Below, one piece after another: positions 391-10,517 of a stretch of 64,000 nt of DNA. Numbering within the stretch: position 1 is the stretch's first letter; each line of letters opens with the position of its first letter. The notes under the pieces are model-generated. The model was not told where the DNA came from. It searched no databases and worked only from the letters and a program-made list of their open reading frames with translations. The stretch is from positions 186,480-250,479 of the forward strand of contig CAYNHQ010000004.1 of the NCBI GenBank assembly GCA_964397255.1, read 5' to 3'. Source of the stretch: an uncultured bacterium. GTDB taxonomy: Bacteria > Bdellovibrionota_G > JALEGL01 > DATDPG01. The position numbers and the translations under genes are program-made.

Positions 391-467
391 GGCGGTGTAG
401 CTCAGTTGGTTAGAGCGAGGGTCTCATAAGCCCTAGGTCCGGGGTTCGATCCCCTGCGCCGCCACCA
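391..467 (+). tRNA. tRNA-Met (anticodon CAT), elongator type; tRNA-Ile2 (lysidine) cannot be excluded; CCA encoded
   Basis: Cloverleaf folded by hand. Acceptor GGCGGTG pairs CGCCGCC (G1:C72 is paired, so it is not an initiator), discriminator A73, CCA. D-arm GCTC-AGTTGGTTA-GAGC. Anticodon stem AGGGT/GCCCT with loop CTCATAA (CAT). T-arm CGGGG-TTCGATC-CCCTG. Confidence 0.85.
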
Positions 468-471
468 AATG
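452..471 (+). repeat. attL core: 20-bp sequence ccctgcgccgccaccaaatg at the tRNA 3' end, repeated exactly at 8353-8372
   Basis: Exact 20-bp direct repeat seen at both positions. Integrase gene lies immediately adjacent. Confidence 0.75.
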
Positions 472-565
472 CGTTCTAACTTCTCGTCATCAAAAAACTT
501 TTTCTTCAACGTAGGGTCAGTTGGGTAACTTTGGGTAACAGCTCGGGTTACTTTTACTTCGCTGC

Positions 566-1837
566 TTACGAATGTCGAACCAAAGAGATGACTTTGGCTC
601 CTTCCGGACTCGGAGGGTTCTCGGTCGGTTTATCTTTCCCCAACGCGAATTTTTCAATCGCGTTCCTTTGCGTTCTCTCTGCCACCTTCGCGTAATGCTG
701 CGTGACGGCGAGATCTCGGTGACCCATCGCTGCTTGCGCAGCCCGAATATCATTCGTCTGATCCGCATAAATTGAGGCGAATGTGTGACGCATGACATGC
801 GTTGACCTCACTGGAAGGCCCAGGGCCCGATACGCTTTCTTGTAGGCATTCTGGAGCGCCGGGTACTTGAGCATCTCCCCTTCTTTGTGAAAGACAAAGG
901 GGCCGTTCGTCCCTTTCAGTTTCCATTCGCTCAAGAGACGAACCAGACGTGACGGCATGACCACCTTTCGGAGGTCTCCCGTCTTGGTCCCCTCACGTAG
1001 GAACGGTTCCTTCGTTCGATACTGCCAGTAACAGACTCGCTTGATCTCCACGGCTGAATTCTGAAGATCGACGCAGTCCCACTGAAGACCGCACGATTCA
1101 CCGATCCGCGCGCCACAGAGCGCTTGGAACGACGCCAGGTAATAATAAACCGGCCGATGATGCGTGCGAAGACGTTCGAGAAATCTCTCTAAGTCCACCT
1201 CAGAAAGCGAAATGTCCGGCTTTCCCGGCTTCGCTTTAAAGAAAGCATCCCGTCGGTGTCGCTTGAGTATCGGAGGTTGAAACCTCGGATTCTTATACTC
1301 GCGATACCAGTTCAGTATCGTCATGAGCGTTTTTACCTCACGCAAGAACGACACGCGCGTTGCCTTCTTCGGGTAGGAAGGATCGATCATGTATTTCAAC
1401 CACCGATCGATATCTTCCGCCGAGAGATCCTCCACAGGAATTTCGAAGAGAGCTCCAAAATGAAAGATCTCCTTCGTTAAAGAATCCCACGTGCCTGGCG
1501 CGAATCTCGGCGGCTTTGACCACTCCCTCCAGTCCGCAACGAGGTTTTGTATTGTGTACGTGTTCTCTTTACGGATGGGAATCTCAGGATTGGATTCGGT
1601 TCTCCAGCCCCGAGCCTCATCGACCGTATGAAAAAGTCGGATCTGCTGGACGATTTTTCCCAGCATTTTCACCCGACGAACGGCGCGATAACTCTTCGCC
1701 TTACTTCCGACGACGGAGCGAAGATCGATGTAACGTTGTTTTTCCTCGCTCCAGACAGTGATCTTGAAGATCCCCGGATATCCCCGCACTTTGGTCAGAC
1801 GGCGTGTATCCCTCTTTCTGTTTTGATGATTATCCAT
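566..1837 (-). CDS. int: Tyrosine-type site-specific integrase (phage integrase family)
   Basis: C-terminal catalytic motifs ...ARIGESCGLQWDCVDL...HVMRHTFASIYA...GHRDLAVTQHYAKV (R, HxxR and Y signature). Adjacent to the tRNA attachment site. The first Met of the ORF may be upstream of the real start. Confidence 0.85.
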   Translation of the reverse strand: MDNHQNRKRDTRRLTKVRGYPGIFKITVWSEEKQRYIDLRSVVGSKAKSYRAVRRVKMLGKIVQQIRLFHTVDEARGWRTESNPEIPIRKENTYTIQNLVADWREWSKPPRFAPGTWDSLTKEIFHFGALFEIPVEDLSAEDIDRWLKYMIDPSYPKKATRVSFLREVKTLMTILNWYREYKNPRFQPPILKRHRRDAFFKAKPGKPDISLSEVDLERFLERLRTHHRPVYYYLASFQALCGARIGESCGLQWDCVDLQNSAVEIKRVCYWQYRTKEPFLREGTKTGDLRKVVMPSRLVRLLSEWKLKGTNGPFVFHKEGEMLKYPALQNAYKKAYRALGLPVRSTHVMRHTFASIYADQTNDIRAAQAAMGHRDLAVTQHYAKVAERTQRNAIEKFALGKDKPTENPPSPEGAKVISLVRHS

Positions 1838-2093
1838 ACTGCTGACTCCTCTCTGATAACCACCTGCGAATCACTTCGGAGCTGAAACGAACCATCCGCG
1901 GCGTAGGTCGGACCGTTGGGATCTTCCCCTGCCAGACTAAATTCCGAATGGTGCCTTTGCTGCATTGAAGGACTTCCGCCAATTCACTGACCGTAAGCAG
2001 TCGGCCTATTCCCTTTTCAAAGATCAAGCCCTCGCGAAGTTGAAATTTCCTCGGGCCGAATTGCGCGATCTTATCATCCTGCATGGGAAACAA
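1830..2093 (-). CDS. xis: AlpA/Xis-family excisionase-type helix-turn-helix DNA-binding protein
   Basis: 87 aa with MerR-like HTH LLTVSELAEVLQCSKGTIRNLVWQGKIPTVRP. Lies immediately upstream of int, overlapping it by 8 nt. This is the typical int-xis arrangement. Confidence 0.6.
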   Translation of the reverse strand: MFPMQDDKIAQFGPRKFQLREGLIFEKGIGRLLTVSELAEVLQCSKGTIRNLVWQGKIPTVRPTPRMVRFSSEVIRRWLSERSQQYG

Positions 2094-2114
2094 CCTTTCT
2101 TTTTCAAATCCTCA

Positions 2115-3488
2115 TCAGAAATCGATCTCCGGGCCGCTCTTTTTCTCGAGGCTCACGTCTCCGAAGAGCGTCAGCGTTTTTTCATTTTTTCGAACTGGTC
2201 GGCGAACCACTTCTGGTCTACGGGATTGAGATTGGGAATCACCTTCTCTTGAAACGTCCTCCAGAGAATCGCGTCCTGGTTCTCTTTCAGATAAAAACGC
2301 CAAATGGAACAGACGCTTACCGCCACCACCGCCATGGCGAGGTTCAGGAGAAAGAAGACCCCGATCGCTTTGAGCTTGATTCCGTTGTTGGCTTGTCGAA
2401 TATCCTCCAGAACGTCCTGCGCCCGTTCGCAGGAGGAGCGAAAGCTCTCGCCCGCCGATTGATAGGTTCGCTGTAGCTGCTGGCTTTCGACCTGCGATTT
2501 GTGGGTCATCTCCCTTAACGAATCGAGCAAGGGACAGATTTTTTTCTCGAAGTCGTTGGCCACGTTTTTGAAGCTCTCGTGAGAGATCTGGAGAAGGTAG
2601 GGCGGATCCTTTTCGGAACTGTTCGATGGCCTGGAAAAGTCTTGGGTCATCTCGGTTTTGGTCATAACTGATTCCTTTCTCTTGTTGTAAGCCGTGCCAC
2701 GTATAGGCTCGGCCGAGGTTACTTCCTTTCATCGATTCGCCGTCCAGACGAAAGCGAATTCCTGAAATGTGGCCGGTCTTGGCCTGGTACGGAGAGACAT
2801 CGACATGCTGGTCCTGAAGCCGTCCAATAAAATCACTCATCGTCGGCTTTCCCTGTGCCGCTTCGTCGATGATCTGTTGTAGTCGGAGCTTTGTACTTGG
2901 CTCGCCGGTCCGAAGAACCCTGTGCAACTCTCCGGAGGTCGGTGATCGTGAGAGCGATTCCCGGCTTGGCAGAACTCGGGTCAGTCCATGCTCCAATTCC
3001 AGGCTCCGAATGGTCGTTTCACTCCGGCGGTAGTCGTGACTTTCTGAAACGACTTTGCCGTCTATGCCGATTCGGTTTGCCACAATATGAATATGGTCGT
3101 GAGGCGTATCGGTGTGTCGGACGATCAGGAATTGCGATTTCTTAAATCCCATCCGGTCGAGATAGGTGTGCGCAACCTCGTTCCATTTCTGATCCGAAAG
3201 GCGCTCGCCGGGTGGTAACGAAAGGCTTGCGTGGTACACGGGCCTTTTCATGCTCGGTTTCAAATTCCGGACCGCTCCGAATTCGGCGATAAGGTCTTTC
3301 GGGGATCGACCGACCATGTTTCCGCCGATCTGCTGCGCACCCTCCTTCCCGAGAACATACTTAACGAGGCCGCCAAAACTCTTCCCTTTGGTCTGCTTAC
3401 CGATCACGCCAACCTCGATGCCAAAACGTTTAGCGCCAGGTTCTGAACGGCGGCGCTTATCTCTTCGAGCAGGCCGACGCCGACGCAA
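2115..3488 (-). CDS. mobA: Mobilization relaxase (MobA/MobL-type relaxase domain)
   Basis: Catalytic Tyr region GKSFGGLVKYVLGKEG and 3-His motif HTDTPHDHIHIVANRIG. The first ~28 codons of the ORF overlap the mobC 3' end, so the real start is probably near 3405-3420 (GTG or ATT). The C-terminal ~180 aa are low-complexity (R/S/G-rich) and overlap an alternative-frame ORF. Confidence 0.7.
   Translation of the reverse strand: MRRRRPARRDKRRRSEPGAKRFGIEVGVIGKQTKGKSFGGLVKYVLGKEGAQQIGGNMVGRSPKDLIAEFGAVRNLKPSMKRPVYHASLSLPPGERLSDQKWNEVAHTYLDRMGFKKSQFLIVRHTDTPHDHIHIVANRIGIDGKVVSESHDYRRSETTIRSLELEHGLTRVLPSRESLSRSPTSGELHRVLRTGEPSTKLRLQQIIDEAAQGKPTMSDFIGRLQDQHVDVSPYQAKTGHISGIRFRLDGESMKGSNLGRAYTWHGLQQEKGISYDQNRDDPRLFQAIEQFRKGSALPSPDLSRELQKRGQRLREKNLSLARFVKGDDPQIAGRKPAATANLSIGGRELSLLLRTGAGRSGGYSTSQQRNQAQSDRGLLSPEPRHGGGGGKRLFHLAFLSEREPGRDSLEDVSREGDSQSQSRRPEVVRRPVRKNEKTLTLFGDVSLEKKSGPEIDF
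2171..2665 (-). CDS. Hypothetical membrane protein encoded out of frame inside the relaxase gene (mobB-like nested ORF)
   Basis: 164 aa with balanced composition and a clear TM helix AIGVFFLLNLAMAVVAVSVCSIW. It lies entirely within the 3' third of the relaxase ORF in another frame. Confidence 0.3.
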   Translation of the reverse strand: MTKTEMTQDFSRPSNSSEKDPPYLLQISHESFKNVANDFEKKICPLLDSLREMTHKSQVESQQLQRTYQSAGESFRSSCERAQDVLEDIRQANNGIKLKAIGVFFLLNLAMAVVAVSVCSIWRFYLKENQDAILWRTFQEKVIPNLNPVDQKWFADQFEKMKKR

Positions 3489-3829
3489 CTCGCCTGCCCG
3501 GAATGAATGGCCTTTGTCAGCTGGTTGAGGTTGTTCCCGACGCGAGCAAGCTCTTGATACGCGGATCTATTGATCTCGGGTGCGGGAAGAGGCGGAAGTC
3601 TACGCTTCAATACCGCCCGCCGGACGTATTCGCTCAGGCTTAGGTGGAAAGCTCGAGCGCTCATTCCGATCTCTTTTCGTTCTTCCGGCGTGAACCGAAT
3701 GGGAACGACGCGAGTCCTCCCGCGAACGGAGTGAGTGGGACCGCAAATCGACGTAGTCGGTTTGCATGGCTCGCTACTCACTTCTTCCCACATTCTTTCC
3801 CCCTGCTTCTCTTCCCATTTCTTTTTCAT
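3404..3829 (-). CDS. mobC: Relaxosome accessory protein MobC (ribbon-helix-helix mobilization protein)
   Basis: VVPIRFTPEERKEIGMSARAFHLSLSEYVRRAVL...YQELARVGNNLNQLTKAIHSGQ matches the MobC signature (RxTxEE...SxSEYIR...GNNLNQ). Start taken at the internal ATG at 3827-3829 (MKKKWEE). The upstream part of the 276-aa ORF overlaps a plus-strand gene and is judged non-coding. Confidence 0.7.
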   Translation of the reverse strand: MKKKWEEKQGERMWEEVSSEPCKPTTSICGPTHSVRGRTRVVPIRFTPEERKEIGMSARAFHLSLSEYVRRAVLKRRLPPLPAPEINRSAYQELARVGNNLNQLTKAIHSGQASCVGVGLLEEISAAVQNLALNVLASRLA

Positions 3830-3926
3830 CTTTTTGTCTTTTCTCTCTACGCATCTGTGATATAACACATTTGAGGTACACCGTGTCAACGCATAGTTAC
3901 GTGATAAAATATAACGTTTTAAGCCT

Positions 3927-4760
3927 ATGAATGTATTCAAAAATTCCGGGCAGCCTCCGGAGCCAGGTGTCGCCCAGGCGGAGAAGCCTCGATCGAACTT
4001 GGTCGGAATGAATGTACGGCTGGAGCCATCCCTCAAAAAGGCGATCGAGGCAGTAACTTGGGAATCCGGAGTCTCCCCAGGCGGGCTCATTCGAAGGCTC
4101 TCGTTCCAGGACATCACGAGAAATGTTGCGAACCGATGGAAGGCCCCGGAGTGGATCAAAGAGGAGCCACGTGCAGCGAACCTGAATTTTCTTGTGCTTG
4201 CCCGACATTCGGAAGCGATTCGACTTCGAGCCAAGGAACTAAATTTAAGCCTGACCGACTACATTCGCTCGCTCGCCATTTTCCAGGTTTTTGAAGCTGA
4301 AAAAGTGTTCAAAGAAAAGGGTCAAAAATTAACAATCTTGGACGAAACCTCAAGACACTATTGGCCAACCCTCGAAGCAAAATCGAAAAAGAGTTGGCTA
4401 TCGAAATGGACAAAAAGCAAGAGAGACCCAGACCTTCAAGACCAATTTCTACGCGACGTCGAGGGCGTTGACATCGCCGCCGGATACACCACGTACAAAG
4501 GCAAGAAGATCATCGAGCTTGTGAAAGGCGAGGCAGAAAAAGAGGGCTTAAGTCTTGCGGCCTATCAAAAGAAGCTCGTGTATGAAGACCTGGAACGAAA
4601 ATATGGGATGAAATTTGTGGCAGAAATTCTCGACGAACCGTTTGAGCAATGGGAGATGTATGATGATTTTATAAAGCGTGTGATCGATGATACCGGAAAG
4701 GTGAATATGGAATTCCTGAAACTCAAATCCTCGGCAAAATCGCCGCATACGAAGAAGTGA
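3927..4760 (+). CDS. Hypothetical protein with two N-terminal ribbon-helix-helix (CopG/MetJ-like) motifs
   Basis: MNVRLEPSLKKAIEAV... and FLVLARHSEAIRLRAKELNLSLTDYIRSLAI resemble RHH beta-strand plus helix units. The K/E-rich C-terminal ~150 aa is of unknown function. 16-nt gap to the next gene on the same strand. Confidence 0.5.
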   Translation: MNVFKNSGQPPEPGVAQAEKPRSNLVGMNVRLEPSLKKAIEAVTWESGVSPGGLIRRLSFQDITRNVANRWKAPEWIKEEPRAANLNFLVLARHSEAIRLRAKELNLSLTDYIRSLAIFQVFEAEKVFKEKGQKLTILDETSRHYWPTLEAKSKKSWLSKWTKSKRDPDLQDQFLRDVEGVDIAAGYTTYKGKKIIELVKGEAEKEGLSLAAYQKKLVYEDLERKYGMKFVAEILDEPFEQWEMYDDFIKRVIDDTGKVNMEFLKLKSSAKSPHTKK

Positions 4761-4776
4761 TGGAGATCAAAACTCA

Positions 4777-6243
4777 GTGACTCTGAATGAACTACGCCGC
4801 CTTGTCCGTGAAGGCGAAGGCCCCGGACTGGAGTTCAAACGAACGACGGGAGAGCTGAGCCGCGGTTTAGAAACGATATGTGCTTTTTTGAATACGGAAG
4901 GTGGACAGGTTTTGTTCGGCGTCGGCCCCAAGGGGACGATCGAAGGGCAGCAAGTCTCATCCCAAACCCTGCATGAAATCACCCAGGCATTCAGCCGATT
5001 CGAACCGCCGGCGGTGATCAAGATTGAACGGGTCAAGATCGGAAAAGGGCGCGAAATACTTGTTCTAAACCCGAAAATCGATTCGGAGTCGCTGCCGTTC
5101 ACGTTTGATGGTCGCCCCTATGAACGAGTCGGAAACACGACTCGGAAGATGCCGCAGCACCGATATGAGTCCCTTCTTTTTGAACGGGCTCACGCCACGC
5201 GGCGATGGGAGAATCAACCCGCCGAGGGCGTGCGTCTCAAAGACCTCGATCACGAGGAAATTTTAGCAACAAGGGAAGCCGCCATTGCGCAACGGCGGAT
5301 CTCCGCAGGAACCAGCCGGGATATCGGAGACATCCTCGACCGACTCGGCCTTCGCGTCGATGGAAAGATCACGCAGGCAGCGCAAGTTCTCTATGGGACG
5401 AAGTTCTTGCCTTACTATGCCCAGTGCCTTCTAAAAATGGGAAGGTTTCGGGGAACAAAAATCACAGGGGAAATCGTCGACAACAAGCAAGAACATTTGC
5501 ACGCTTTCGCGGTCGTACGGGAGGGGATGGCATTTTTAGACCGAACGCTTCCGCTCGGCGCGCGTTTCCCCGAGGGAAAGATTTTCCGGGAAGACCGCCT
5601 TCCGATTCCTCCGAATGCGCTCCGAGAAATCCTTCTCAATGCGGTGATGCATCGGGATTATTCCGATTATGGTGGACACATTGCGATCGCGATTTTCGAT
5701 GACCGCGTCGAAATCAGGAGTGCAGGAAAGCTTCCGGCCGGCGTGACCGTAGATCAACTATCAGGTCCTCACCTTTCAAAACTCCGTAACCTTCTCATCG
5801 CTGGAACGTTTCACCGGACCGGGGCGGTCGAAATCTGGGGTCGCGGCACAGACCGAGTCGTGGACGAGTGCAAACAGCATGGAATCGATCCCCCGATTTT
5901 TGAGGAACGACAAGGGTTCCTGATTGTAACGTTTCGGGCGCAGGTCGTCGTTACCTCGCGACAGCTAGAGTCACAGCCAGAGTCACAGCTAGAGTCGCGG
6001 CCAGAGTCGCTCGATAGACGGGTTTTAATTTTCCTCGAGAACGGTCCTTTGGGAAAAGCGGAAATTGCGGCGCGTATGAGCCAAAAGAAAGTCTCTGGCC
6101 AGCTCAACAAGGTGATTCGGGAACTCGTGAGCGAAGGCCTAATCGTGTATACGATTCCTGAAAAGCCAAACAGCCGGTTGCAGCGATATCAGATAACCAA
6201 AGTAGGCAAAAAACTCTTGGAGAAGAACGGTGAAAGCGAATAG
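4777..6243 (+). CDS. Schlafen-like AlbA_2 (putative DNA-binding) + HATPase_c_4 (RecG C-terminal-like ATPase) + C-terminal winged-HTH protein
   Basis: N-terminus LEFKRTTGELSRGLETICAFLNTEGGQVLFGV (AlbA_2-like). Central LREILLNAVMHRDYSDYGGHIAIAIFDDRVEIRSAGKLP (HATPase_c-like). C-terminus DRRVLIFLENGPLGKAEIAARMS... (wHTH). Family assignment made from memory of motifs. Confidence 0.65.
   Translation: MTLNELRRLVREGEGPGLEFKRTTGELSRGLETICAFLNTEGGQVLFGVGPKGTIEGQQVSSQTLHEITQAFSRFEPPAVIKIERVKIGKGREILVLNPKIDSESLPFTFDGRPYERVGNTTRKMPQHRYESLLFERAHATRRWENQPAEGVRLKDLDHEEILATREAAIAQRRISAGTSRDIGDILDRLGLRVDGKITQAAQVLYGTKFLPYYAQCLLKMGRFRGTKITGEIVDNKQEHLHAFAVVREGMAFLDRTLPLGARFPEGKIFREDRLPIPPNALREILLNAVMHRDYSDYGGHIAIAIFDDRVEIRSAGKLPAGVTVDQLSGPHLSKLRNLLIAGTFHRTGAVEIWGRGTDRVVDECKQHGIDPPIFEERQGFLIVTFRAQVVVTSRQLESQPESQLESRPESLDRRVLIFLENGPLGKAEIAARMSQKKVSGQLNKVIRELVSEGLIVYTIPEKPNSRLQRYQITKVGKKLLEKNGESE
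5961..6008 (+). repeat. In-frame 12-bp tandem repeat x4 (acagctagagtc / acagccagagtc / acagctagagtc / gcggccagagtc) encoding QLES-QPES-QLES-RPES
   Basis: Seen directly in the sequence. Lies between the ATPase core and the C-terminal wHTH of the 4777-6243 gene. Confidence 0.9.
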
Positions 6244-6495
6244 GCGACTGAATTACGGCGCGGAATAGCGACCGTTTTGCAATGCCTCTCCTTTACACCT
6301 GGCCACCGGCCGCTGAAGTCTCCCCATTGATCCGCGACAGTTTCGCAGAGACATTCACTCCGCAGCCCTCGCCCTCAAAGAAAAAATATTAATGATATTA
6401 ATTGCTTATATCTGAAATCCATTCTCTATAAATGGCCTATTGAATGCATGGAAATAGTGTGACAATATGCGTCAATTTTTCGAACGAGGTGTGAG

Positions 6496-7299
6496 ATGAG
6501 AACGAAGTGGATGGCAATAACGATGGCTGCTCTGGCGACCGCGTCGGCGCAAGCGGCTTCTGAAAAATCCGATCGGATTTGTGGGTTTCCCGGCGAAGCG
6601 GGTCACAATATTGAGCAGAGAATTGCGGATTGCAAAGTGGCCTACCCATCCGATTCAACACGGAAGTCCGACACGTCGAACGCAACCATCTCGTTGGTGA
6701 CTCGCTTGATTTCAAACAGTGGAAAGTCGGAAGATGTTTGGAAAGAGATGCCTAGCGGCCTTCTATGGTCGGATATCATTAAGCGAGTGACTGATCCCCC
6801 GAGCGACAAAGCACCTGATTCATCGGAGAAGCCCAAAACTACTTATTCATGGAATGAACTCATAGAGTGGGCAAAGTTGAAAACGGAGCCAGGTTCGTTG
6901 GAGTTTTTGGATGACGTAGAAACATATAGATGGGTCGAGAGGAAATATTCTGGAGGCAAATCCGTAAAATTTGATGACCCCGCTGGGAAAACCGTTTGCC
7001 AACTCGCGACTGAGAAGTTGGCCGCAATGGGGGGGCTTAAAGATGTTCATTGGCATCTTCCGACAGCTGACGAGCTAGCCCACATCGGAAGGGTGGATCA
7101 GAGCCGTTACAACGAATACGAAAAGAAAAATATCACAGGGAATGGGCTTTTTGCGAAACTTCCGAACATGGCCGATCATTGGTTTTGGTCCTCGTCGCCT
7201 GCCGGTGGCGTCAACGCGTGGGGGCTCAGCGGGAGCTTCGGCGATGTCGTCAGCGACGACCGCGACTACGACGGCGCCGTACGTTGCTTGGGCCGCTAG
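6496..7299 (+). CDS. Secreted DUF1566 (Lcl C-terminal domain-like) protein with signal peptide
   Basis: Signal peptide MRTKWMAITMAALATASAQA. C-terminal motifs VHWHLPTADEL...FWSSSPAGGVNAWGLSGSFGDV resemble DUF1566. AT-rich promoter region upstream. Confidence 0.5.
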   Translation: MRTKWMAITMAALATASAQAASEKSDRICGFPGEAGHNIEQRIADCKVAYPSDSTRKSDTSNATISLVTRLISNSGKSEDVWKEMPSGLLWSDIIKRVTDPPSDKAPDSSEKPKTTYSWNELIEWAKLKTEPGSLEFLDDVETYRWVERKYSGGKSVKFDDPAGKTVCQLATEKLAAMGGLKDVHWHLPTADELAHIGRVDQSRYNEYEKKNITGNGLFAKLPNMADHWFWSSSPAGGVNAWGLSGSFGDVVSDDRDYDGAVRCLGR

Positions 7300-7322
7300 G
7301 CGTGGGAAGGGTCAGCTTAGAA

Positions 7323-7366
7323 GGGGACTATCAGTCCGTGATGGATTGATAGTCCCCTTTGATTTT
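7323..7366 (+). terminator. Rho-independent terminator after the DUF1566 gene
   Basis: Perfect 11-bp inverted repeat ggggactatca / tgatagtcccc (loop 13 nt) followed by tttgatttt. Confidence 0.7.
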
Positions 7367-7496
7367 CACCCGTTTTCGATGGATCGAAATCTCTTCGGGA
7401 ATCGCACGGAACTCGGTGGTCCAATCGACCAGCCGATCGAGGGATTCTTTCCGAAGTCGATAGCTTTGGGCATGAATCAGATAGCCGAGGCAGGAA

Positions 7497-8078
7497 TTGA
7501 GTTTTGCCAGGCGGCTCTCAGTTATTTTCGGCCAGCTGGGAAACGCGAGCGCCTGGGTACCCGGCAACATCACGGATAATGTGTACGCCGAAATCTTATT
7601 CCTACGCGAGCTGGAGAAAAAGGAGACTGCGCCCACTGGCAGCGCAACAGTTGCTGAAAAAGTTAAAGGACCCAAGAACATTCAAGAGGCTATTGCCAAT
7701 TCTATTCGATTCCTAACGCGAGAATTAAGCGGACATGTGAAACTCTTGAGCCAGCACAATCAGCCCAAGGAGCTCTATAAAGAGATGGCAATTGAACAAT
7801 CCGGGTATGGGATGATCTGTCCTTTAGGAGATGTTGGCCAATGTCTCCTCTTACCAAAGGCCATAAAGGACGTTCTTCCGATTCAGATGCAGCATCTCAC
7901 GCCCGAAGTGGAAAAGTTTGTAAAGGCCACTACCGGGAAACTCATATATTACGACCCCGCACTCTTCGCCCAACGGGTCAGAGAAGCGAACGAGAAACAT
8001 CAGCGTGAGATCATTCGCGAAGGTCAATTCGCCGCCGAAGCGCAACAAAAAGCAGTCGATCGGCAATTGAAGTGGTAG
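7497..8078 (+). CDS. Hypothetical protein (island cargo); true start uncertain
   Basis: 193-aa ORF with protein-like composition from ~VYAEILFLRELEKKE onward. No recognisable domain. Overlaps a probably spurious minus-strand ORF. Confidence 0.35.
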   Translation: MSFARRLSVIFGQLGNASAWVPGNITDNVYAEILFLRELEKKETAPTGSATVAEKVKGPKNIQEAIANSIRFLTRELSGHVKLLSQHNQPKELYKEMAIEQSGYGMICPLGDVGQCLLLPKAIKDVLPIQMQHLTPEVEKFVKATTGKLIYYDPALFAQRVREANEKHQREIIREGQFAAEAQQKAVDRQLKW

Positions 8079-8352
8079 CCCGACTTCATTTGGATCATTA
8101 AGAAGAACAATTGACCAGCGGGCTAGTCGATAGCGAGGTTAACTTGCCCATACTTCGTCTTTTTGGGATTCACACGAGGGATACCATTTGGTTCGCGGTA
8201 ACCCTTTCCCGTGTCTTGGGTAATTTTGGGTAACAGGCCGACTGATACGGAGTGAAATGGGTGCTACTCAGTGATACTGCAGGTTTTGTTATCTGCTTGA
8301 TGTTATTGTTTTTGCCTTACGATCCGAACCGTTGCGCGCCCGCCCCTGCAGG

Positions 8353-8372
8353 CCCTGCGCCGCCACCAAATG
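8353..8372 (+). repeat. attR core: second copy of the 20-bp tRNA 3'-end sequence
   Basis: Exact match to 452-471. Confidence 0.75.
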
Positions 8373-8375
8373 ATT

Positions 8376-8420
8376 TCCGAATACGGTATTCGGAATACAG
8401 AATTCAGTATTCTAAAAAAT
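8376..8420 (+). promoter_or_regulatory. Cluster of GAATAC/GTATTC half-sites including the perfect palindrome ccgaatac-g-gtattcgg; candidate operator/promoter upstream of the 8440 gene
   Basis: Sequence ttccgaatacggtattcggaatacagaattcagtattct...gagtattct. Lies immediately outside attR and 20-60 nt upstream of the start codon. Confidence 0.4.
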
Positions 8421-8439
8421 CGAGTATTCTGCCCCGTTC

Positions 8440-10032
8440 ATGTCGACCGAAATCCAGTCCGTAGGGAACCTCTCAGACACCCCCCTCCTTCAATTATTTC
8501 GATGGGTTACCGAGAACCACTATAGCGGGGTCATGATTCTTGCCCACGACGAAGTGAAGAAATCGATCATTTTTGAAAAGGGCCAGATCATCTCCGCTCG
8601 TTCCAACATTATGTCGGAGTGTCTTGGGCAGCTCCTGCTCGCTCAAGGGAAGATTACTCAAGCTCAGCTCACTCAATCGCTGACCAAAACCGATGCACAG
8701 GAATCCATGCGACATGGAGAGGTGTTGATTGCGATGGGACTAATCGACCATGCCCTTCTAAATGATTTTCTTCGAAGACAAGTGGAAGTACGAATCGAAG
8801 AAATTTTTTCCTGGAAAGAAGGGAAATACGGCTTTGTTGAGAAAATTCCGGAGGATGCGGCCCGCGTAAAAATCGAAGGCACACTTCTTGAGATCGCTCT
8901 TAGGGGTCTAATTCGGCGATATTTGAAACAAGAAGATACGAAAGCGCTGAGTCTTGATTTAAAGCCAATTTCGATTGGAGGACATGGTATTGAAATTGAG
9001 CAACTGAAATTAGTGGGTCGAGAGATGAGTCTGTTGAGAGCTGTTTCTGGTGTGTCGACAATGAAAGATATTATTACGAAGTCACGAATGGATGAGCCCA
9101 TGGCACGCGCAATGTTTCTGGCATTTCGCGACTTCGGAATGATTCGAATCGGCGACACCGCTCCGCAAACTTCTCCCAGCACCCGATCTACCCCTCCGCC
9201 CCCACGCGAATCTTCAAAGCCGGCCCCTGCGCCATCATCTGCCACCGCATCGAAGCCGAGTACTCCGGCTCCGCAGACCCCGGCCACCAAAGGATTTAAC
9301 CCGGAGGAAATAGCCGATCGACTGGCCGCCGCGCAAACGCAAACCCTTTTCGATCTCTTAGGGGTTCCGCGACAGGCGACAACCGACGATATCAAGAAAG
9401 CCTATTTCGATCTTGCCAGGAAGTACCACCCCGATCGCTTGCCACCGAACATGTCCCCCGAAGATCGAAAAAATGCGGAAGCTCTATTTGCTCGAATTAC
9501 CGAAGCACAGACCAGGCTTACCAATCCTTCTTCGCGAAAAGAATATGAGGCCTCACTTGAATTGGAGGCGAGCGGGGTCGGGTCGGGACAAGTGAATGCG
9601 GTCCTGGAATCGGAGGCGGAGTTCCAGAAAGGGACGGCTCTTTTGCGGAAGGGGGATTTCAAAGGAGCTATGGAGGCTTATCAAAAAGCAATATCGCTTT
9701 ACGAAAAAGAACCCGAATATTTTTCACAGCTGGGTTGGGCGATGTTTCGTCAGTCGGCGAAGACGAAAAATGCCGCGGAACATGCGAAAGCAAAACGGGC
9801 GGTGGAGACGTCGATCAAGATGAATCCGAATTTGGCGCAATCGTATTACTACCTGGGCATGATCACGAAGACCGACGGCGATCTCGAAATGGCCAAGAAA
9901 CTGTTCAATAAAGCGGTAGAAATGAATCCAAAAAATGCGGAAGCGACTTCCGAACTCCGACTCATCAATTCGCGTCTGGAGAAGGAACATAAGGGAGGAC
10001 TTAAAGGGCTCTTTAAGAAAAAGGAAGCATGA
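8440..10032 (+). CDS. DUF4388-like N-terminal domain / J-domain (DnaJ) / TPR-repeat protein
   Basis: J-domain YFDLARKYHPDRLP (HPD motif). Pro/Ser-rich linker. C-terminal TPR-like repeats (AMEAYQKAISLYEKEPEYFSQLGWA..., AQSYYYLGMITKTDGDLEMAKKLFNKAVEMNP). N-terminus resembles the DUF4388/PATAN fold (from memory). Confidence 0.65.
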   Translation: MSTEIQSVGNLSDTPLLQLFRWVTENHYSGVMILAHDEVKKSIIFEKGQIISARSNIMSECLGQLLLAQGKITQAQLTQSLTKTDAQESMRHGEVLIAMGLIDHALLNDFLRRQVEVRIEEIFSWKEGKYGFVEKIPEDAARVKIEGTLLEIALRGLIRRYLKQEDTKALSLDLKPISIGGHGIEIEQLKLVGREMSLLRAVSGVSTMKDIITKSRMDEPMARAMFLAFRDFGMIRIGDTAPQTSPSTRSTPPPPRESSKPAPAPSSATASKPSTPAPQTPATKGFNPEEIADRLAAAQTQTLFDLLGVPRQATTDDIKKAYFDLARKYHPDRLPPNMSPEDRKNAEALFARITEAQTRLTNPSSRKEYEASLELEASGVGSGQVNAVLESEAEFQKGTALLRKGDFKGAMEAYQKAISLYEKEPEYFSQLGWAMFRQSAKTKNAAEHAKAKRAVETSIKMNPNLAQSYYYLGMITKTDGDLEMAKKLFNKAVEMNPKNAEATSELRLINSRLEKEHKGGLKGLFKKKEA

Positions 10033-10517
10033 ACGGCCCGCCCTCACTTCTGTTTGAACTTCATATCGCTATACTCGTGGTCGGAGTTCTCTTATTTCTG
10101 TTTGCGTCTCTCTCTTCGCTGATTTATTTGTTGGCGCAACGCCAACTGAAAAGTCGGAAGTTAGAGCCTTGGTTTCGCCGGCTTCCGCCGCTCGAGACCA
10201 TGGACCGTTGGACCGTGCGCGCTCTCATTCTGGGATTTGTTTCGTTGACCATCGGCATTGTCTCGGGAATTTATCTCGCCCATTTGGTGTGGCCCGCGGC
10301 CTGGATCCATGACCCCAAAGTGATTTGTGCGGTGGCCACGTGGGGATGGAATGTCTTGATTCTAATCGTTCGGTATCGACGCGGCTGGCGAGGGGCCAAG
10401 TTTTTTGCGCTCATTCTCGTTGGCTTTTTGTTTCTTTTGCTGACGTTTTTAGGAGTTTTCTTTGTGTTCCCCGCAGAACCTCATCGGATAGCCTCTGTAT
10501 GGATCTCGTTGTATTAG
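10029..10517 (+). CDS. hemX: Small polytopic membrane protein, HemX/CcsA (cytochrome c assembly family)-like, upstream of hemA
   Basis: Four predicted TM helices. W-rich segment WPAAWIHDPKV...ATWGWNVLILIV. Position upstream of hemA, ATGA-coupled to the preceding gene. Shorter than the canonical HemX. Confidence 0.35.
   Translation: MNGPPSLLFELHIAILVVGVLLFLFASLSSLIYLLAQRQLKSRKLEPWFRRLPPLETMDRWTVRALILGFVSLTIGIVSGIYLAHLVWPAAWIHDPKVICAVATWGWNVLILIVRYRRGWRGAKFFALILVGFLFLLLTFLGVFFVFPAEPHRIASVWISLY

Follow-up and report, generated by a model that had tools for sequence, protein, structure and literature searches.

A non-random array of GWATWC hexamers as a putative operator upstream of a J-domain/haem operon beside a tRNA-Met island

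The window analysed here, by which we mean the whole stretch of DNA of 64 kb (64,000 nucleotides), contains a complete 7.9-kb integrative mobilisable element (452-8372) at a tRNA-Met gene and, beyond its right boundary, an operon that opens with a gene for a J-domain protein and continues with genes of haem biosynthesis (Table 1). The attL core is made up of the last 16 nt of the tRNA followed by AATG; the exact copy at the other end keeps the displaced tRNA 3' end at 8353-8368, and the flanks beyond the 20-nt repeat differ between the two ends. A tRNA is the sole match of the Rfam scan in the whole window. Among the proteins of the island, the Schlafen/AlbA_2-HATPase_c_4-Fic-like_C protein is a possible candidate for defence cargo, and a 12-bp tandem repeat, ACAGCYAGAGTC, of about four copies (5961-6008) lies within its reading frame. 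Just 3' of the Lcl_C-domain gene there is a strong hairpin, AAGGGGACTATCAGTCC/GGATTGATAGTCCCCTT (7321-7359; 17-nt arms, 94% complementary, 5-nt loop), which looks like a terminator. Inside both island ends we also find a 21-nt direct repeat, TTGGGTAAYTTTGGGTAACAG, itself a tandem of TTGGGTAAC, whose copies (521-541 and 8216-8236; 95% identical) are separated from the att core by about 50 bp and about 117 bp and are probably arm-type integrase-binding sites. A 1,790-bp contig in Logan SRR12313479 is 100% identical to 470-2259, the integrase region of the island, and stops 2 nt into the att core, an end that may reflect low coverage or heterogeneity of the junction.

Table 1. Features of the island, the hexamer array and the operon, in positions of the window.
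Feature	Position	Strand	Source or remark
tRNA-Met (CAT) gene, 3' end the island integration target (attL side)	391-467	+	ARAGORN; Rfam tRNA, 68 bits
attL core, 20 nt, CCCTGCGCCGCCACCAAATG	452-471	+	direct-repeat family
Tyrosine integrase gene	566-1837	-	Pfam
HTH_17 excisionase-like gene	1830-2093		Pfam
MobA/VirD2 relaxase gene	2115-3488		Pfam
NikA-like/MobC protein gene	3404-4234		Pfam
Schlafen/AlbA_2-HATPase_c_4-Fic-like_C protein gene	4777-6243		Pfam
Lcl_C-domain protein gene	6496-7299		Pfam
attR core, exact 20-nt copy of 452-471, right island boundary	8353-8372	+	direct repeat
Palindrome 1, perfect 10-1-10 inverted repeat TTCCGAATAC-G-GTATTCGGAA, 21 bp	8375-8395	none	sequence
GWATWC hexamers 1 to 5, in exact 7-bp register	8379-8412		starts 8379, 8386, 8393, 8400, 8407
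Palindrome 2, GAATAC-A-GAATTC-A-GTATTC	8393-8412		centre 8402/8403, about 37 bp before ATG
A6 tract between hexamers 5 and 6	8414-8419	+	sequence
Sixth hexamer (8424-8429) within the 8-mer AGTATTCT	8423-8430	+	
DUF4388/PatA_N-DnaJ-TPR gene, first of operon	8440-10032	+	Pfam
hemX-like gene (Cytochrom_C_asm)	10029-10517		Pfam
hemA, hemC, hemD, hemB, after the hemX-like gene	operon to 14458		Pfam; synteny kept in relatives

An array of short, related hexamers takes up the greater part of the 67 bp that separate attR from the start codon (8370-8442 reads atgaTTTCCGAATACGGTATTCGGAATACAGAATTCAGTATTCTAAAAAATCGAGTATTCTGCCCCGTTCatg). The array was described in an earlier note as lying immediately outside attR and upstream of the J-domain/haem operon, and this is where it is: it begins 3 bp past attR, on the chromosomal side, and its hexamers cover the interval 11-61 bp before the ATG. 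With the att direct repeat ending at 8372 and the array starting at 8375, the array is not part of the repeat. The same note had reported a perfect palindrome, ccgaatac-g-gtattcgg, with further half-sites close by. The palindrome is present and longer than stated, with arms of 10 nt and its centre at 8385, 55 bp 5' of the ATG at 8440; the extra half-sites are likewise there, and can be written as five copies of G(A/T)AT(A/T)C (GWATWC) in a 7-bp register, followed by a sixth out of that register. The in-register run reads GAATAC G GTATTC G GAATAC A GAATTC A GTATTC, so that hexamers 1 to 5 point forward, reverse, forward, both ways (GAATTC being itself palindromic) and reverse. In palindrome 2 the hexamers are symmetric around GAATTC, and only the two spacer bases are non-complementary. 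The 8-mer AGTATTCT stands at 8406-8413 and is repeated 17 bp further on, around the sixth hexamer.

The palindrome taken by itself is not exceptional in this DNA. GAATAC/GTATTC occurs 25 times in the window against an expected 19.6 +/- 4.4, with 5 of the 25 falling within 8379-8429, and because perfect palindromes with arms of at least 10 nt and loops of up to 10 nt number two in the window against 0.7 in shuffled sequence, palindrome 1 alone is weak evidence of non-randomness. The arrangement is another matter. The degenerate GWATWC has 76 copies in the 64 kb, and the array is the only place where three or more of them fall within 51 bp, here with six; AGTATTCT has three copies in the window against 0.7 expected. 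Chance does not explain the in-register run, and the array is clearly non-random: symmetric, in register and non-coding. It is also single-copy in the window, where a mismatch-tolerant search (13-, 15- and 21-mer palindromes and other spacings, with 2-7 mismatches) returned chance-level matches only. We know of no operator consensus that the hexamer fits.

That the array is non-coding follows from an in-frame TAA at 8413-8415, upstream of the ATG at 8440, and from the support that this start receives from the N-termini of homologues (MSTEIQSVGNLSDTPL here versus MSTQAQSVGSLQETPL and others). The closest homologues of the J protein, searched among 5.8 billion proteins, are 35-49% identical to it, and the best-named of them comes from a Bdellovibrionota MAG. 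We compared the loci of seven such homologues as the orthologous loci. They keep the J-hemX-hemA-hemC-hemD(-hemB) operon, with a divergent thioredoxin gene and no tRNA upstream of it; in these relatives the operon is preceded by the thioredoxin gene and by mreB-mreC-pbp2-rodA, a synteny that is broken in the window. In this Bdellovibrionota-like group (the window and loci L001, L004, L006 and L008) the hemX-hemA-hemC-hemD(-hemB) operon regularly opens with a DUF4388/PatA_N-DnaJ-TPR gene, and comparison of these loci suggests that the J protein may be a chaperone-type partner for haem synthesis.

The relatives also indicate where a promoter might be expected. In the intergenic regions of five of them (L001, L004, L006, L007 and L008), an extended -10-like TGGTAnnnT stands 10-25 nt before the ATG of the J gene, a position that would imply very short or absent leaders, and in the same regions the divergent thioredoxin gene has a TTGACA -35 box with a spacing of 17 nt. 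Since the promoter of the relatives lies 10-25 nt before the ATG, the array in the window would cover the expected site of RNA polymerase. Within the sixth hexamer, TATTCT (8425-8430) has the -10-like form TAnnnT and lies 9 nt before the ATG; by its position, which matches the extended -10 of the relatives, it would be the -10 element, and the last GTATTC may accordingly serve as a -10 element rather than as a half-site. On this assignment palindrome 2 would cover the -35 region, with palindrome 1 about 17 bp further upstream. Scans for sigma-70 promoters and for terminators gave counts no better than those of shuffled sequence anywhere in the window and are uninformative for this organism. 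Read by eye, sigma-32, sigma-28 and sigma-54 promoters were rejected, the transcription start falling inside the reading frame or the GG/GC spacing being unsuitable.

The array itself is a different matter in the relatives. The earlier note had named conservation of the motif in orthologous promoters and its occurrence elsewhere in the genome as the points on which its proposal should be judged, and neither lends it positive support: the motif is absent from all of the orthologous promoters examined and has no further copy in the 64-kb window. The intergenic regions of the five loci named above are free of GWATWC hexamers before the J gene, and L005, whose J gene follows other genes, has a single one. 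The array motif thus appears not to be conserved in orthologous promoters, as far as relatives so distant and rearranged upstream can tell; with J proteins only 35-49% identical and a different upstream gene, its absence there is a weak test.

A further question is whether the array came with the island. It abuts the attR of an element with integrase, excisionase-like, relaxase and NikA-like genes, and in this it resembles the att sites of mobilisable elements that target tRNA genes; in contrast to those sites, it falls on the chromosomal side, beyond the repeat. The Bdellovibrionota MAG GCA_035292885.1 carries a related element, identical in gene set and with an integrase 62% identical, at a tRNA-Leu gene with a 15-bp repeat, and the DNA past its far repeat has no such hexamer array. 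For this reason we assign the array, by comparison of the two elements, to the chromosome and not to the island, which inserted 3 bp upstream of the array and left it intact. What the island displaced, upstream of 8373, would formerly have been the tRNA-Met gene, which would have ended 7 nt upstream of palindrome 1 and been joined directly to ATTTCCGAATAC. Read-through from the tRNA promoter into the operon, if there was any, would have been lost when the island inserted.

We suggest that the array is an operator with several protein-binding sites that overlies the J-hem promoter, its last hexamer doubling as the -10-like TATTCT. This is the best-supported reading, to which we give a tentative probability of roughly 45%. 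It is favoured because six GWATWC hexamers, five of them in register, are packed into 51 bp with no other such cluster in 64 kb; because a perfect 21-bp palindrome is accompanied by a second symmetric palindrome and by the duplicated AGTATTCT; because the array is non-coding and lies over the expected promoter; and because an operator design of this kind, with unspaced heptads in mixed orientation across a promoter, is established for the omega repressor (PMC4627068). Against it we count the lack of conservation in relatives, of a second site in the window and of an adjoining transcription-factor gene, and also the fact that the exact five-hexamer array has no metagenome match and that a 14-bp duplication could yield such regularity unselected. 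Symmetry, non-coding position and overlap with a likely promoter all fit the putative transcription-factor site that the earlier note had proposed. Its further description of the site as dimeric is probably too simple, since the 7-bp register of five hexamers points to several protein units side by side.

The omega repressor of pSM19035 binds as one dimer per heptad, with two contiguous heptads as the minimal site and 5'-WATCACW-3' as the heptad consensus (PMC4627068). The operators of this ribbon-helix-helix protein are like the present array in consisting of contiguous, unspaced 7-bp units, mixed direct and inverted, several in a row and overlapping -35 and -10. Where that system asks for two or more unspaced 7-bp repeats, there are five here (starts 8379 to 8407), in mixed orientation; the heptads are not WATCACW, the units being GAATAC, GTATTC or GAATTC plus one base. 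The omega operators are plasmid-borne and autoregulatory, with the ribbon-helix-helix gene adjacent, whereas the array is chromosomal and stands upstream of a chaperone/haem operon. No ribbon-helix-helix gene lies beside the operon, and the only proteins of that type in the window are the NikA-like mobilisation proteins of the island. As the heptads are of another sequence and have no cognate gene beside them, the resemblance appears to be one of architecture only, and not of membership. A more specific version of the operator reading, in which a small cooperative protein, possibly of the ribbon-helix-helix type, occupies five or six GWATWC units in the manner of omega heptad iterons and switches the J-domain/haem operon, of which the site would be the only control point since the island cut off the tRNA-Met promoter, seems to us decidedly doubtful. 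If it were true, it would mean a new operator motif and a new regulator for haem synthesis, in a design so far found mainly on plasmids.

Boxes of the Fur family offer a second comparison. These are AT-rich 7-1-7 inverted repeats, overlapping or adjacent, and can likewise stand upstream of an operon of hemA, hemX, hemC, hemD and hemB: in Bacillus subtilis a PerR box lies upstream of hemAXCDBL, which PerR controls. Metal or peroxide control of haem synthesis would be biologically sensible. The 7-1-7 geometry is present in the array, as CGAATAC-G-GTATTCG at 8378-8392. Half-sites of the family follow TGATAAT, TTATAAT or TCGTAAT, and by inspection each half-site here agrees with the consensus at only about 3 of 7 positions. 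In further contrast to known Fur-family systems, there is no Fur-family gene in the scanned reading frames and no other box was found. An ICE box of Irr was considered and rejected, a half-site TTCTAAA alone being present. A search for a regulator near the operon met no adjoining transcription-factor gene, the small flanking reading frames having no DNA-binding domain, and the small genes that adjoin hemB or hemD in the relatives bear no relation to each other.

Another reading, somewhat unlikely, makes the array a neutral by-product of mutation with no dedicated function: in a short, AT-rich spacer, slippage or template switching would have produced a second copy of the palindromic 14-bp unit TTCNGAATACNGWA, and the result would not yet have decayed. 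TRF describes the array in just such terms, as a tandem repeat with a 14-bp period, 2.2 copies and 82% matches, and neither conservation nor a second copy in the window speaks against an accident. Heptamer repeats built on GWATWC are moreover common in public data, and so expand easily: a degenerate four-heptad pattern has at least 120 metagenome and 56 viral matches against a naive, uniform-composition estimate of less than 1. Among the matches listed, however, almost all are microsatellites, direct repeats of one heptamer, whereas orientation alternates here. They include (GAATTCN)n, (GAATACT)n, (GTATTCT)n and (GTATACN)n, and one phage family carries TGTATTCTGTTTTAT(GTATTCT)4GGCTCTG inside a 272-aa reading frame. 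No metagenome contig matches the exact five-hexamer array, and an alternating three-hexamer pattern has two matches in viral contigs, both in coding sequence and at chance level. Simple slippage, moreover, does not yield a perfect 21-bp palindrome, nor does duplication account for a sixth hexamer that lies out of register, 17 bp off, in an identical 8-mer context; and a spacer that is the sole room for the promoter of the operon is unlikely to be free of constraint.

Rather than being read in DNA, the array might act in RNA, as the leftover 3' trailer of the tRNA-Met or as a 5' hairpin of the mRNA: either a site where the tRNA is processed or non-canonically terminated, or a stabiliser at the 5' end of a co-transcribed J-hem mRNA, now stranded at attR. 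We hold this to be unlikely. Like the terminator or trailer hairpin of a tRNA, the array offers a perfect stem-loop that would have started 7 nt after the original tRNA-Met 3' end, with the displaced end of that tRNA still in attR (8353-8368) and the palindrome following from 8375, and the predicted fold of both strands is a stem of 9 bp closed by a 3-nt loop, along with another hairpin that is weaker. Unlike such hairpins, it has an only moderately GC-rich stem and extra in-register hexamers, and no U-tract: the stem is followed by UACAGAAUUC and then by A6, and the terminator scan called no intrinsic terminator at the array. In this organism the lack of a U-tract does not settle the matter, since canonical terminators are not enriched in the window (28 against 28.1 expected, and 35 against 27.6 expected). 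The folding itself is unremarkable for the composition (z of -1.4 and -1.8), which together with the absence of a U-tract argues against a purely RNA role. An RNA role would also leave the 7-bp register, the central GAATTC and the sixth hexamer 17 bp downstream unexplained.

We also considered the array as one copy of a dispersed element. The 17-bp core CCGAATACNGTATTCGG was used as the query of a genome-collection scan, and among the matches listed it sits at the tip of a REP-like hairpin, present in high copy, in three MAGs of Patescibacteria (H43-bin112_1, Modern_marine.mb.217 and MM_PC_MetaG.mb.212) and at the tip of long hairpins in several alphaproteobacteria; the two Bdellovibrionota matches listed are both within reading frames. 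The Patescibacteria REP/MITE-like hairpin, GGGTCTGTCG-CCGAATACSGTATTCGG-CGACAGACCC, is frequently linked to TATAAAATTCCAAATTTTTGTAAATTTT and in many cases lies at contig ends. Also among the matches listed, the palindrome has a conserved position in seven Candidatus Poribacteria genomes, and at the two of these loci inspected (L021 and L089) it stands inside a long reading frame (about 480-500 aa), beside TTGACAC. The core is all that the Patescibacteria hairpin and the window palindrome have in common, the flanks being GGGTCTGTCG..CGACAGACCC there and TT..AA here. That the array is a REP/MITE-like hairpin copy, for which the shared core at these hairpin tips would speak, or a site of another recombinase, with 7-bp inverted arms around the 8-bp spacer AGAATTCA in a geometry of palindrome 2 that we take, as a lead only, to be that of a simple tyrosine-recombinase core site, is very improbable given a single copy in 64 kb, the differing flanks, the lack of any match of 8200-8445 to plasmids and phages by BLAST and the absence of a second recombinase nearby.

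Returning to the operator reading, we posit that a sequence-specific protein recognising the near-palindromic G(A/T)AT(A/T)C would fill adjacent 7-bp units, either as one dimer per hexamer, in the manner of ribbon-helix-helix repressors, or as dimers on overlapping 6-1-6 palindromes. Binding could start about 55 bp before the ATG, where the perfect palindrome is, and spread cooperatively over the -35 region to the -10-like AGTATTCT, and the bound protein would then exclude RNA polymerase and act as a repressor. With the tRNA-Met removed by the island, the promoter within the array may now be the main driver of the operon. Where the promoter lies, what kind of protein binds and whether it represses are points that we infer from the sequence, and the array is probably a fairly ordinary, putative regulatory site.

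As a single, unconserved site in an uncultured organism, the array is of limited value in itself. If it is a real operator, the island would have inserted only 3 bp away from a regulatory site and spared it, and the site would mark where haem biosynthesis, together with an unusual DUF4388-DnaJ-TPR protein, is controlled in a poorly known lineage of predatory bacteria.
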